Assembly (NCBI GenBank): GCA_963817895.1
Contig: CAWFQB010000001.1
Coordinates: 896,001 to 960,000, forward strand
Length of the DNA: 64,000 bases
From: an uncultured Chthonomonadaceae bacterium
GTDB taxonomy: Bacteria; Armatimonadota; Chthonomonadetes; Chthonomonadales; Chthonomonadaceae
Direction of reading: 5' to 3'
Position numbers and translations under genes: made by a program. The notes below the pieces were generated by a model, which was given only the letters and a program-made list of their open reading frames with translations, had not been told where the DNA came from and did not search any database. Below are positions 8,340 to 49,961 of this stretch, piece by piece (the stretch's first letter is position 1; each line of letters begins with the position of its first letter).

Positions 8340-8590
8340 GCGCGGCAAGCAACGGCAAGCGCCCGGAGGGGGAAGTTGTCGTGCAGGGCTACTGCGTCCA
8401 CTGTCGCAGCCGCCGCCAGATGGTGGGCGCGATCCAAGTCTGCAACAAGCGCGGCGGGCGCGACCTGAAAGGGCTATGCGGCATTTGCGGCAAGTCCATG
8501 TACCGGTTGGGCGGCTGGGACTCGGTTGCCGCCGCCGCGCAGCAAGCCGACAAAGGCGATGCTATTCAGGACGCCGCAGAAGAAAAGTAG
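8336..8590 (+). CDS. DUF5679-like zinc-ribbon protein
   Basis: YCVHCR...GLCGICGKSMYR. Confidence 0.75.
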   Translation: MSAASNGKRPEGEVVVQGYCVHCRSRRQMVGAIQVCNKRGGRDLKGLCGICGKSMYRLGGWDSVAAAAQQADKGDAIQDAAEEK

Positions 8591-8675
8591 CCTTGTTTGA
8601 GTTTGCAATATAGCCTGTATCTTTCCAGTAATCGAAGGGTACAGGCTTTTTGGCACTAATTTATGGCTTTCAGGC

Positions 8676-9038
8676 TCAGGCGACGGCGAATTCTCCCACT
8701 TCGCGAAGTGGCAGGGAGTAGAATCCCAGCACGATACGGCCTTTGGGGATTCCTTCCGCCACCAGTTCGGACGCGATACCCTCCCCGGTATTGTCGGTCA
8801 GTATCCATATTTTGCCGTCGCGTATCTCCAGATAGGCAAGCAGGCGCGTGTCATAGCAGCCTTTGGCAAAACTGACGTTCTGTAGTGTGTAGCGGTTATG
8901 CGGCGCGTCCTGAACGCTGACAATCTTCCAGTCACTCGGCATACGCGGCAGTTTTTCCCATTCAGCAAACATGCGCTCAATCGCTTCGCGTAGAGCGTCT
9001 ATGAGAACGGATTCGTGGTAGCGGTCTAAAGCAGACAT
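8676..9038 (-). CDS. XisI family protein
   Basis: EIRDGKIWILTDNTGEGIASELVAEGIPKGRIVLGF...EFAVA signature. Confidence 0.85.
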   Translation of the reverse strand: MSALDRYHESVLIDALREAIERMFAEWEKLPRMPSDWKIVSVQDAPHNRYTLQNVSFAKGCYDTRLLAYLEIRDGKIWILTDNTGEGIASELVAEGIPKGRIVLGFYSLPLREVGEFAVA

Positions 9039-9148
9039 TATCGTCAATCTCCTCTCCCATTATACCACTGCCTGTGCGCCATGCCTCAATACATCCGTTA
9101 GAAAACTGACAACCGTTTGAGTTAAAACGTCAGAGTTCCAAAAACCGT

Positions 9149-9177
9149 TTGACAAACGCGGCGACATAGCCCATAAT
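9149..9177 (+). promoter_or_regulatory. sigma70-type promoter upstream of hicAB
   Basis: TTGACA-17 nt-CATAAT. Confidence 0.7.
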
Positions 9178-9351
9178 TAATGGACAAACCACTTGAACAT
9201 TGTACAATCCCGCGTCCGTAGGACGCTTGGCGGAACGCCACTCAGACGGGTGTTTTCAACACTCGGAACCCCGCCATAGTACAATCTTTATCTGGTTTGT
9301 CCATAAGAACTGATTTTTGTTCTTGAAGATTGTCTCCACAGGTACACATCC

Positions 9352-9639
9352 ATAAGTAGATGGGCTAAATTCTATGACAAGATTGCAAGTAAGCAGTCCG
9401 ATAACAACATAGAATTTGATGAACTGGAAGCGTACCTTGAACGTTTGGGATGGACAACCGCCAGCGAGGGTACAAGTCATCGAAACTATACACACCCGAA
9501 TGTTCCTGCGGCGGTAAATATACAGCCTCGTAGAGATGGCAAGGCCAAGTCCTATCAGGTTGAACAGATGCGAATGGCTCTTGATCTTTACACGGAGGAA
9601 GACAAGGATGAATGGTTACGAGGTAAAAGTCTATTATAA
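9352..9639 (+). CDS. hicA: HicA family toxin with apparent ATA start
   Basis: In-frame (I)SRWAKFYDKI...NIEFDELEAYLERLGW...GTSHRNYTH...NIQPRRDGKAKSYQV. Confidence 0.75.
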   Translation: MSRWAKFYDKIASKQSDNNIEFDELEAYLERLGWTTASEGTSHRNYTHPNVPAAVNIQPRRDGKAKSYQVEQMRMALDLYTEEDKDEWLRGKSLL

Positions 9640-9841
9640 CTCCGACGACCAGTGCTACGTGGCGCAAATCGTGGAGTTTGTTGGCTGTGCCGTAGATGGC
9701 GAAACCGCTTCCGAAGCCTTGAATAATTTGTATGAAGCGAAAGAAGCGTGGATTAAGGATATGCTGGCGCAAGGCCATGCTATCCCTCCTCCAAAATACG
9801 CTTCCGCGCAAGCCTCAAATCAGTACGCTGTCACCGCCTGA
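9608..9841 (+). CDS. hicB: HicB family antitoxin
   Basis: YVAQIVEFVGCAVDGETASEALNNLYEAKEAWI...GHAIPPP. Confidence 0.85.
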   Translation: MNGYEVKVYYNSDDQCYVAQIVEFVGCAVDGETASEALNNLYEAKEAWIKDMLAQGHAIPPPKYASAQASNQYAVTA

Positions 9842-9911
9842 TTGACCGAACGTTCCGTAGACGCTGAATGTGGAACATTGGGCTTGTTCGGAGTAAGTGT
9901 CAACGAGCCGT

Positions 9912-9940
9912 TTGACAAACAGGCTGAGATAGCCTATAAT
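9912..9940 (+). promoter_or_regulatory. sigma70 promoter of the valS leader
   Basis: perfect TTGACA-17 nt-TATAAT. Confidence 0.85.
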
Positions 9941-9965
9941 AAGAGACTGATTTTCGCTTTTCGCA

Positions 9966-47578: not shown

Positions 47579-48568
47579 ATGCCGATTTCGCGACGCCGAT
47601 TTCTGGAACAGACCGCTGCGGCAACGGGTGGATTGTCGCTCATAAACAATATGGCTTCCGCCGATGAGAAGCCAAAAATCGGTTCGGACGTTGCGCCGGG
47701 CACGTTGCCCACGCGCATATTGGGCCGGACAAAAGAAAAAGTGTCGCTGCTCGGCATTGGAGTCGCGCCGCTTGGGGACGCTTCCACCACATTCGCGCAG
47801 GCCGAGGGCGTTGTTCATGCCGCGCTGGATATGGGCATAAACTATGTGGACGTGTCGCCAGATTACGGCAACGCGGAAGACAAATTGAAAAATGTGCTGC
47901 AAACCCGGCGCGATAAGCTGTTTCTGGTAACAAAGGTGAACCCGCAGAAGCAGGACAGGCAGGGCGTACAGGAGCAGATTGAGGCCAGCCTGAAGCGTAT
48001 GGGAACCGACCATATAGACGCGGTTCATATTCACAATCTCGGCGAATTCGATATGGAAAAACTGTTCATGCCGGACGGGGCCATTGCCGGATTGAAAGCG
48101 GCGCGGGACAGGGGGTTGATCCGATTTTTGGGAACCAGCGGACACATGCGCCCGCCCCGCTTTGTGCAGGCGATTGAAACGGGCGATATTGACCTGACGA
48201 TGAACGCGCTCAACTTCGCGGATCGGCACACATACGATTTCGAGGGACTGGTGCTGTCCGCCGCGCAGAAAGCCGGCACGGCGGTTGTAGCGATGAAGGT
48301 ATTGGGCGGCGCAATCGGCTGGAAGTACGACGCCAAAACCCCCGCCACCCTTGCCGCATATCACGAGCAGGCCATTCGTTATGCGCTGGGCTTGAAGGGC
48401 GTGTGCTGCGCCGTGATCGGTTTCAGCAATACCGATGAGGTGCGGCAGGCCGTAGAAGTGGCCCGCCACTACAAGCCGCTGACGAATACAGAGCGCGTCG
48501 CCCTGCTGGACAAAGGTAAAGAACTGGCGCAGGCGCGCGGCCTGTACTACGGCCCGCTTACAGGGTAG
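47579..48568 (+). CDS. Tat-exported aldo/keto reductase
   Basis: SRRRFLE twin-Arg signal; GINYVD, FLVTK and AMKVLGG motifs. Confidence 0.9.
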   Translation: MPISRRRFLEQTAAATGGLSLINNMASADEKPKIGSDVAPGTLPTRILGRTKEKVSLLGIGVAPLGDASTTFAQAEGVVHAALDMGINYVDVSPDYGNAEDKLKNVLQTRRDKLFLVTKVNPQKQDRQGVQEQIEASLKRMGTDHIDAVHIHNLGEFDMEKLFMPDGAIAGLKAARDRGLIRFLGTSGHMRPPRFVQAIETGDIDLTMNALNFADRHTYDFEGLVLSAAQKAGTAVVAMKVLGGAIGWKYDAKTPATLAAYHEQAIRYALGLKGVCCAVIGFSNTDEVRQAVEVARHYKPLTNTERVALLDKGKELAQARGLYYGPLTG

Positions 48569-48645
48569 TTTACAACTCTGCCGTCACTGCGCGAGTAAGA
48601 AAGCCTAAAGCAGACTGTAGCGAAGGTTTCCGTCATGGTTCTGCA

Positions 48646-49068
48646 TTAAACCGACCAATCTTCTACTTTCAGGCCAGGTACTTTGTTGAAATCTGACAGG
48701 TTGCGCGAAAGAAGCGTAGCGTCGTTGGCAAGGGCAATCGCGGCAATTTTCAAGTCCATTGTGCCGATACGAACTTTGGCTTGTTTGAGACGCTCGAACT
48801 CAGCGGCGGCTTTCTCATCGTACTGCACAACAGTAACGCGGCAGTAGATGTCAAGGTGACGCTTCAGAAAAGTGTAAGCGCGTACTCGCTCCGCTTCGGT
48901 CTGCAGCCGCGCAATATAGGCGAACCAGCCGCGAGTTTGTTCCTCATGACTGATGATGGTTGTGCCAAGATCGTCCAGAGGAATTCTCGCCAGCCGCGCT
49001 TTCAGAACTTTCGTGTCCGGCCCTTCGCGCTCCAGAACCGTCATCGGTTCCGTGTCAAGCAGAACCAT
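48646..49068 (-). CDS. vapC: VapC PIN toxin
   Basis: MVLLDT, IGTMDLKIAAIAL and LSRNLSDF.KVPGLKVEDW. Confidence 0.9.
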   Translation of the reverse strand: MVLLDTEPMTVLEREGPDTKVLKARLARIPLDDLGTTIISHEEQTRGWFAYIARLQTEAERVRAYTFLKRHLDIYCRVTVVQYDEKAAAEFERLKQAKVRIGTMDLKIAAIALANDATLLSRNLSDFNKVPGLKVEDWSV

Positions 49069-49300
49069 GCGCTTCCTCCGATGTTGCAGCCTCGTCTGTG
49101 TCGTAGTCCATACGCTGCGATTCGCGCCATTCCCGGCCCAAGCGCACAGCCTCCTCAAACTCCGGGCTGTCCTTAAACACACCGGAAATTTGTTCCCACC
49201 AGGGTTGCTGAACAGGCGTAATATCGGCGCGTTCCCGCTTCAACGCTTCCACTTCCGCTTCCAGCCGTGCCAGTCGTTCTTCTACCTCAAATGTTGTCAA
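49055..49300 (-). CDS. antitoxin of the VapC pair
   Basis: 81 aa, overlaps vapC; PWWEQISGVFKDSPEF. Confidence 0.8.
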   Translation of the reverse strand: MTTFEVEERLARLEAEVEALKRERADITPVQQPWWEQISGVFKDSPEFEEAVRLGREWRESQRMDYDTDEAATSEEAHGSA

Positions 49301-49395
49301 GGCTTTTCTCCTCTCCTGTTCAAGCTTATTTTACCACGCGCCTGCCTGTAACACTCCAATTGTAACCAGGCAGTCAGGACTGGCGCATCTAAACG

Positions 49396-49712
49396 GAAAA
49401 AGAAGGAGAATATGTAGAGACAGCGTCGAAATAGTGGCAATGCAGCGCTTCCAGCCCAGTGTCTCGTTGTGTCAAGTTTTTCAGAAGAGGCATCGTGACC
49501 TCGTAAGTGTTAGGGCGAACGAGAAGTATGTACAGGCATCTTCTTGCACCTCCCTTCCAGGTTAGATTGTTGAGAGGAATTTTGAACTTTCAACTTCCCG
49601 CCGCCTGGCTAGTTAGCAGAATCTATAAAGTAGACGTGCGTTGCATATAGAGACGAGGTTAGTTCAGAAAGAGTTCATCCGTTTTGCTATTTAACTAGAT
49701 TTTTTTCTACAT
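49396..49712 (+). repeat. non-coding repeated element, copy 2
   Basis: matches 32679-33042 in inverted orientation. Confidence 0.9.
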
Positions 49713-49738
49713 TTCTTGTTCATTGGAGGTACATCCTT

Positions 49739-49848
49739 ATAGCGCATCTTGTCGGCAAGTACAGCGACGAGCCACAATGAGACAACATTTGCAGGCCATA
49801 GAGGAGGTGCGCCGCCAGATGAACGCGCAGGAAGAAACGACGGAATAG
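49739..49848 (+). pseudogene. decayed antitoxin-like fragment
   Basis: AHLVGKYSDEPQ*DNI then, after a frameshift, LQAIEEVRRQMNAQEETTE*; resembles the 49055-49300 product. Confidence 0.4.
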
Positions 49849-49910
49849 GCTGGAAGACGTTAGAGAACACAATGCGCCGCCGAGTCCTATTCAGGTTCTC
49901 GGCGGCGCAT

Positions 49911-49961
49911 AAGGAACTGGCGCAGGCGCGCAGACTGTGCTATGGCCCTCTAAAAGGTTAA
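49911..49961 (+). repeat. diverged copy of the 3' end of the aldo/keto reductase gene
   Basis: KELAQARRLCYGPLKG* versus KELAQARGLYYGPLTG* at 48518-48568. Confidence 0.9.

Follow-up and report, generated by a model that had tools for sequence, protein, structure and literature searches.

We examined a window of 64,000 nucleotides (the whole stretch that was analysed, C1:896001–960000) from the genome of an uncultured Chthonomonadaceae bacterium, here G000 (an assembly of 7.48 Mb in 14 contigs, 81% complete). Three loci in this window, at the promoter of valS, the 3′ end of an M48 peptidase gene and the 3′ end of an aldo/keto reductase (AKR) gene, share one layout: a host sequence, a short insert and a second, diverged copy of the host sequence in direct orientation. 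The pattern is real and genome-wide. It is a recombination scar of known type and not, as an earlier note on this DNA had proposed, a design for the delivery of toxin–antitoxin (TA) genes. Nor is the layout new, for it has been published as ‘insertion with long target duplication’ (PMC2853133). The loci are probably integrase-free insertions flanked by long, diverged target duplications, each formed by one homologous crossover in a short anchor together with an illegitimate joint at the far end.

The three pairs, all recovered by a repeat finder, bracket cargo of 730 bp (valS), 1420 bp (M48) and 1341 bp (AKR). The valS promoter pair lies at 9145–9177 and 9908–9940 (33 nt, 82% identity), the M48 end pair at 13390–13466 and 14888–14964 (77 nt, 84%) and the AKR end pair at 48517–48567 and 49910–49960 (51 nt, 82%). 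Shared layout and duplicated parts are as the earlier note had described them, as is the termination of both gene-end pairs exactly at the stop codon; their edges are sharp. Each of the two ends matches nothing else in the genome but its own partner copy. The codon changes between copies are 8 synonymous and 3 non-synonymous for M48, and 5 and 3, respectively, for AKR. Between duplications of 33, 51 and 77 bp, the cargo of 0.7–1.4 kb holds no integrase or mobility gene apart from two non-coding repeats, and none of the three window cargos contains restriction–modification (RM) genes. No tyrosine or serine recombinase was found among the 74 window open reading frames (ORFs) scanned, in agreement with the earlier note; an IS3-type transposase lies 3.3 kb from the detached, or orphan, copy of the AKR end.

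Is the layout confined to this window? To address this question we compared gene ends across the genome, taking the 5894 called genes of at least 100 aa and a match score of at least 24. There were 37 matches in the 8 kb downstream, 26 upstream and 12 inverted, against 0 of 5894 in a window 50–100 kb away; mid-gene probes gave 14 at the same score. An unanchored self-comparison returned 301 local two-copy repeats, of which 282 are direct and 19 inverted; these counts still contain paralog and domain pairs. Removal of pairs within one gene, pairs between two long genes, weak pairs and very close pairs left 82 loci, with duplications of 30–251 bp, a median identity of 86% and a median span of 1.8 kb; the valS promoter pair itself scored below this two-copy filter. 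At 67 of the 82 loci the cargo has a GC content below the genome mean. The locus density in G000 is about 11 per Mb. The genome-wide enrichment of gene-end duplications that the earlier note had predicted is therefore present.

The duplications are also polar. In a set of 84 rows (the 82 loci plus two added by hand), 46 overlap a host gene. At 3′ ends the orphan lies downstream in 23 cases and upstream in 3 (p 9e-5). At 5′ ends the duplicate lies upstream in 7 and downstream in 5, and within genes it lies downstream in 7 and upstream in 1. Such polarity bears on the proposal that whole genes were duplicated in tandem, partly deleted and then filled with accessory genes, which the earlier note had named as the alternative that could refute it. 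Real tandem paralogs do make up about half of the raw gene-end matches (27 of 47 were not classed as orphans). For the gene-end class, however, the sharp junctions, the lack of an upstream remnant, the strong polarity, the coding-type divergence and the single-copy empty sites in relatives contradict the proposal, and we regard it as highly improbable.

How did the two copies come to differ? In 17 ungapped 3′-end pairs, the 180 differences fall 45, 27 and 108 at codon positions 1, 2 and 3. They comprise 96 synonymous and 58 non-synonymous changes, a crude dN/dS of 0.19, and none of the 536 orphan codons is a stop. A simulation of neutral orphan decay yields 40–44% third-position differences and about three stops; the observed share is higher (p 9e-6, 9e-8). 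This excess rejects plain decay of a tandem duplicate, and the preponderance of synonymous changes is an argument that the donor supplied one of the copies. The earlier claim that both alleles evolved as functional coding sequence is thus upheld by the mostly synonymous changes and the genome-wide third-position bias; it fails in part at the AKR orphan, which looks partly decayed.

A different account is a true target duplication, in which a host stretch is copied during break repair along with insertion of foreign DNA, the copies being identical at first and drifting later. The name used in PMC2853133 implies it, and young copies at 97–98% identity exist; at C14:283390, 189 identical bases are followed by 7 differences. 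Identical runs on the junction side exceed those of shuffled pairs (30 pairs, p 0.007), whereas the far end gives p 0.56. With the 29 G000 pairs the junction-side value is p 0.015, which falls to 0.056 without the strongest locus and to 0.13 without two. Third-position differences are likewise fewer in the first 33 bases (47/298 versus 138/625, p 0.015). This weak signal is confounded by the lower conservation of protein tails and by gene conversion. If real, it speaks for one-ended invasion with copying, or for a tandem junction carried by the donor, more than for a simple crossover of a circle. At single loci the codon pattern could also be mimicked by an allele replacement that struck the working end later; over the whole set, a 60% third-position share with no stops exceeds the decay simulation. 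On the origin of both copies from the target itself, then, the codon pattern favours a donor allele and the junction-side identity favours partial copying. We consider true target duplication unlikely as a general explanation.

Two relatives of the same genus, G001 and G002, whose shared genes align with those of G000 at about 75–88%, allow the loci to be compared with their unfilled counterparts; the genomes G005 and G015, the latter of another genus, also enter some comparisons. A further relative, about 90% identical, was available as contigs from sequencing runs X2 and X3. The M48 locus is composed as follows.

13389–13466, minus strand: orphan M48 3′ end, in the ancestral position beside the valS end
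13535–14158, plus strand: GNAT-like cargo gene, its family score below the cut-off; patchy, in 5 of 42 family genomes
14155–14811, plus strand: small gene of no assigned family fused in frame to a cupin, which starts at 14449; in 6 of 42 family genomes
14887–14964, minus strand: functional M48 peptidase 3′ end, the gene spanning 14887–15714

The M48 site is empty in G002. On two contigs of that genome valS and M48 converge directly, and the matched blocks are 146 bp apart where G000 has 1587 bp, which places the M48 orphan in the ancestral position. The adjacency of valS and M48 is retained in G000; recipient sequence was duplicated, not deleted. Over the 78 bases of the M48 end, G002 shares 64 with the orphan and 61 with the gene, and G001 shares 60 and 57. 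These outgroup counts hint that the orphan may be the resident allele; the functional 3′ end is likely the incoming one. G000 has the M48 cargo a second time (72%), behind ahcY, where a stub of 19 codons is all that is left of the cupin at its end. The small gene of this cargo is truncated in G002 and abuts a duplicate of an internal ahcY stretch (272 bp, 97%); ahcY looks like a repeatedly used anchor. A GNAT-like pair stands directly behind ahcY in G000 and G015, and 4.3 kb behind it in G002 (L278, L275, L036). A metagenome scan with M48 returned 80 loci with best-segment identity of at most 74%, and the orphan end occurred in 0 of the 19 closest and in 0 of 29 loci from relatives. Genome contigs scanned with the GNAT protein gave one locus.

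The valS promoter locus contains the following features.

9145–9177, plus strand: valS promoter copy 1, −35/−10-like; similarity resumes at about 9305–9325 behind the next feature
9180–9304, no strand: miniature inverted-repeat transposable element (MITE) of 125 bp, with terminal inverted repeats and a 3-bp TWA target duplication
9352–9639, plus strand: hicA-like frame (Pfam HicA 26.3 bits, cut-off 27), beginning at ATA with no standard start codon
9608–9841, plus strand: hicB-like antitoxin gene (PF15919, 28.7 bits, above the cut-off)
9908–9940, plus strand: valS promoter copy 2, preceding the valS leader
10275–13358, plus strand: valS, the host gene, its start taken from the gene caller

Promoter copy 1 is likely the displaced resident copy. 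G002 has a single valS promoter, and hicAB is absent at valS in G001. In the X2/X3 relative hicAB lies ahead of valS, and the joints put a promoter copy before hicAB with no MITE at the site; the MITE of G000 therefore arrived later and is unrelated to the duplication. It has 8 copies at 98–100% in G000 and many partial ones. A XisI gene at 8676–9038 falls outside the promoter duplicate. The long valS leader (9940–10275) resembles a T-box; it has no Rfam score at gathering level, and the window as a whole gave 0 Rfam matches at the gathering threshold. Two hairpins with simple-repeat arms lie in frame within the valS ORF (11687–11810 and 12668–12791), and similar hairpin pairs occur at 16507/17772, 17708/17812, 45860/45996, 57708/57830, 62314/62497 and 63268/63387.

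The AKR locus reads as follows.

48517–48568, plus strand: functional AKR 3′ end, of the gene 47651–48568
48646–49068, minus strand: VapC/PIN toxin gene (PF01850 above the cut-off, NCBIfam VapC below its cut-offs)
49055–49300, minus strand: small gene upstream of the PIN gene, with no family; putative antitoxin by position only
49395–49715, no strand: dispersed non-coding repeat of about 320 bp, with a copy also at about 32860–33040
49910–49961, plus strand: orphan AKR 3′ end, forming the 51-nt pair with the functional end

The PIN gene and its small partner have an 86% copy elsewhere in G002. The repeat of about 320 bp gives some 48–49 BLAST matches in G000 (73–92%, the site itself and the AKR end being counted) and more than 25 in G002, with conserved ends; it may be an old MITE or a structured RNA, with no Rfam match at the gathering threshold. 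The three amino-acid changes of the AKR pair sit in the orphan and are absent from the G002 ortholog, so that some decay of the orphan is likely. The stretch 50174–54782, just behind the orphan, holds a 1053-aa ORF (GC about 39%) that belongs to no Pfam or NCBIfam family, followed by an IS3-type element.

Beyond the window, a locus at an MFS gene is empty in G002 (214 bp, against 1167 bp in G000), and the third locus tested in G002 showed no synteny. The empty sites that the earlier note expected in relatives accordingly exist at M48 and MFS, alongside the single valS promoter of G002 and the missing hicAB of G001. At the end of kdpD both G000 and G002 carry a cassette. The duplications, of about 140 and 94 bp, differ in length, junction and cargo, which indicates two independent events. 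Of 20 other loci with genes of the GNAT family, 4, from G002 and from three other genera, show the gene flanked by a single direct repeat, and one such bracket ends exactly at a stop codon with 98% identity. G001 contributes one promoter-plus-start case. Sample counts of direct and inverted repeats, which are noisy, were 10 and 4 for 2.4 Mb of G000, 5 and 0 for 0.4 Mb of G002 and 1 and 1 for G001, with none for G005.

What do the cassettes carry? We searched 150 of 161 cargo ORFs, from 56 loci (53 chosen by identity and span, 3 by hand), against Pfam. TA families appeared at 8 of these 56 other loci, at one of which the repeated stretch is shared by two antitoxin paralogs; there were RM or defence genes at 6, transposase genes at 5 and an integrase at 1. 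No Pfam family was found for 91 of the 150 ORFs, some of which are probably spurious. PIN genes are enriched, with 6 of 33 falling in the cargo, which makes up 2.6% of the genome (p 2e-4, against a baseline of the whole genome and not of other accessory DNA). The 52 host genes scanned belong to unrelated families, and one of the 82 loci (L074) is an Rhs case. Within the window, TA-like genes occur at valS (HicB and a HicA-like frame) and at AKR (PIN); the earlier note had claimed them for all three loci, and the M48 cargo of GNAT-like gene, small gene and cupin does not bear this out. Toxin and antitoxin family genes are thus not found in every cargo. A dedicated TA cassette design, as the note had it, is left unsupported by the low TA count, the many ORFs without a family, the unrelated hosts and the lack of a visible junction motif. 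The two dispersed repeats were also considered as drivers and rejected, since neither is enriched: the repeat of about 320 bp occurs in 2 of the 82 cassettes against 1.4 expected, and the 125-bp MITE in 1 against 3.7.

Integrases are rare in these loci, a claim of the earlier note that extends to the whole genome. Of the 9 tyrosine-recombinase matches in G000, 2 lie in cassettes and none of the rest comes within 10 kb of a cassette, leaving 80 of 82 cassettes without a tyrosine recombinase; serine recombinases were not searched genome-wide. Could the loci nonetheless be decayed integrative elements or prophages, their copies being attL/attR pairs from which integrase and backbone have been deleted? 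The e14 element at icd is an integrase island of the kind that restores its target gene. Such islands are well known (PMC4383910), and the 2 of 82 cassettes with a tyrosine recombinase would fit. But the other 80 include young ones at 95–98% identity, the targets are dozens of unrelated genes, and the median span is short. An origin in decayed elements is very unlikely.

Another possibility is a dedicated capture system acting in trans, in which a host recombinase, annealing protein or relaxase shuttles cassettes between gene ends via excised circles. The density in G000, with 5 loci in 0.4 Mb of G002, the repeated use of the kdpD and ahcY ends and the 4 bracketed GNAT-family loci out of 20 would all be in keeping with it, as would the lack of Ku, which was not found in any of three genomes. 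Yet inspection of 23 junctions by eye, one of them in the wrong orientation and with no formal motif search, showed sharp junctions and no shared motif, and the duplication length varies from 30 to 251 bp. The same gene has different junctions and cargo in different genomes, and cargo genes are cut at the junctions. We think it unlikely that such a system operates here.

The reading that we prefer, a crossover in a short anchor with an illegitimate far joint, may be set out as follows. The incoming DNA would be a broken piece, derived from a related strain or species, that carries a host gene end or promoter together with neighbouring donor DNA. A single crossover would occur within 30–250 bp of shared anchor, and the far donor end would be joined without homology. 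The working gene would receive the donor end, and the orphan would be the resident one. The joint may be formed by circularisation before the single crossover, as in E. coli, or at the chromosome after one-ended invasion; alternatively, it may be a tandem-duplication junction that pre-existed in the donor. Events would cluster at gene ends and promoters because only such insertions leave the host gene intact, and addictive and defence genes would be over-represented because they persist. That a short-anchor insertion displaces the resident end was the inference of the earlier note, and the layout, the polarity, the coding-type divergence and the empty sites support it. Cargo genes are cut at the M48-cargo copies behind ahcY (G000 and G002) and at the MFS locus; such broken ends would fit donor fragments with an anchor on one side and a break on the opposite side. 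Among 10 cassette ends with a homolog reaching the edge, one is readable, that of the MFS locus, where comparison with an 87% paralog shows no more than 1 shared base.

Several observations weigh against this reading. Anchors of 33–51 bp at 82% identity are short for RecA, so either a longer or more similar anchor existed when the event took place or another pairing activity is involved. The pair at C1:449341 looks decayed, with 1 synonymous and 4 non-synonymous changes. Donor and resident alleles are assigned from weak outgroup counts, against the same-genus G001 and G002. The AKR end of G002 matches the gene (46/52) better than the orphan (42/52), and the AKR locus has no true, syntenic empty site there. 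At 5′ ends the polarity is not clear (7 versus 5), and 38 of the 84 rows have no host gene and stand outside the polarity and codon analyses. Finally, a strict 3′-end scan of 1.2 Mb of G001, G002 and G005 found 0 downstream orphans where about 2.8 were expected, the 0.4-Mb samples being underpowered.

By what route would the donor DNA enter? The single-copy comEC is split in G000 and G002, and dprA is split in G000 and was not found in G002. In the window comEC lies at 55906–57683, split into two frames and carrying an insertion. Broken competence genes might be taken as an argument against transformation. We reject this argument, since 29 of 148 ordinary orthologs change frame in the G000 assembly; natural transformation, which the earlier note named as one possible route, is a candidate. 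A bolder proposal is that integrase-free, Ku-independent, short-anchor insertion–duplication is a main road of gene gain in uncultured bacteria, in which an as yet unrecognised host pairing or end-joining activity accepts anchors of 30–250 bp diverged by up to 20%, swaps gene ends and promoters across species and leaves cassettes able to loop out and move on. We offer this as speculation, with the odds against it.

Other features deserve mention. Among the loci elsewhere in the genome, the youngest event is probably L064 (C14:283390/285850), in which 189 identical bases run from the junction before divergence begins and the cargo is XisI and a PIN pair. Overlapping or nested duplications at L095 (C8:15180–18394) and L084 (C4:814640–817563) point to repeated insertion, and at L068:3370–4335 (G000 C2) a comM-like gene truncated at 321 aa has a duplicated 5′ end upstream. 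At the edge of the window is a fourth diverged direct repeat (261–296/1238–1273, 36 nt, 78%). A type II RM pair, an N6/N4 methylase and a BglII-like nuclease, occupies 19685–21282 within a sugar-nucleotide gene cluster, and no flanking repeat appears in the repeat listing. A low-GC block at 29645–32408 encodes an AAA_21/AbiEii-type ATPase and a partner without a family. Direct and inverted repeats of 30–56 bp cluster at 60070–60890, in an AT-rich gap upstream of recF-like and dciA genes, and possibly mark a replication origin.

Published cases of this kind of insertion are few and centred on restriction enzymes, and a single genome with about 80 loci of varied cargo makes possible a statistical test of how small islands enter chromosomes without an integrase. 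From the scars one can also read off which genes were gained recently and where protein tails and promoters have been swapped silently, and the weak identity on the junction side discriminates between the possible routes. Nobusato et al. 2000 is reportedly cited in connection with insertion with long target duplication. In the definition of Furuta, Abe & Kobayashi 2010 (PMC2853133), which concerns RM cargo, the direct repeats are long, of variable length and in many cases imperfect, there is no mobile element of another kind, a relative has the unoccupied site, and the repeats frequently overlap a start or stop codon. Our loci resemble their cases in the insert (below 20 kb), in genome-unique direct repeats of tens to hundreds of bases with imperfect identity, in the absence of mobile-element genes, in the empty site and in repeats that span a start or stop and keep the target intact. 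Those cases, however, were selected for RM and come mostly from within-species comparison, while here RM or defence genes (6/56) and TA genes (8/56) are outnumbered by other accessory DNA. Our copies diverge by as much as about 20%, with most of the changes at synonymous sites, a pattern that points to a donor allele. That such insertions also involve ‘other DNAs’ is recognised in PMC3457768, which draws the donor tandem-junction route for rRNA genes. In a TA review (PMC3874152) the term appears, among the passages found, only in the reference list. Our literature search, which covered few subscription journals, found no general survey beyond RM systems; the supplements of PMC2853133 may list non-RM cases.

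The closest experimental parallel is E. coli conjugation (PMC3240628), where 56 of 60 Lac− one-anchor integrants had a gene-end duplication, of 109–950 bp in the 14 that were sequenced, an outcome attributed to trimming and recircularisation followed by a single crossover. One-sided homology, gene-end duplications flanking the insert and the absence of an integrase are common to both, RecA-dependence being a feature of the E. coli case. That case concerned a laboratory plasmid with an identical anchor, and a pure circle crossover does not predict the weak junction-side identity seen here. Homology-facilitated illegitimate recombination (PMC3240628, PMC2884548) also combines one homologous anchor with one illegitimate joint, but it usually yields an insertion with a deletion and 3–10 bp of microhomology, where we find a duplication and a readable joint with at most 1 shared base. 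In the displacement arrays of rhs and Vibrio T6SS loci (PMC5361080), for which an anchor-plus-illegitimate mechanism was proposed, an incoming 3′ module likewise pushes the old end downstream as an orphan; those arrays concern toxin loci only, whereas here any gene is targeted and in most cases the end of the protein stays intact. Target-restoring integrase islands (Islander, PMC4383910) share the restored gene and displaced fragment but need an integrase and fixed att sites, and 80 of our 82 loci have no integrase. We conclude that the loci work like the cases of PMC2853133 and PMC3240628 and differ from them in breadth of cargo, in density and in the divergence of the alleles.

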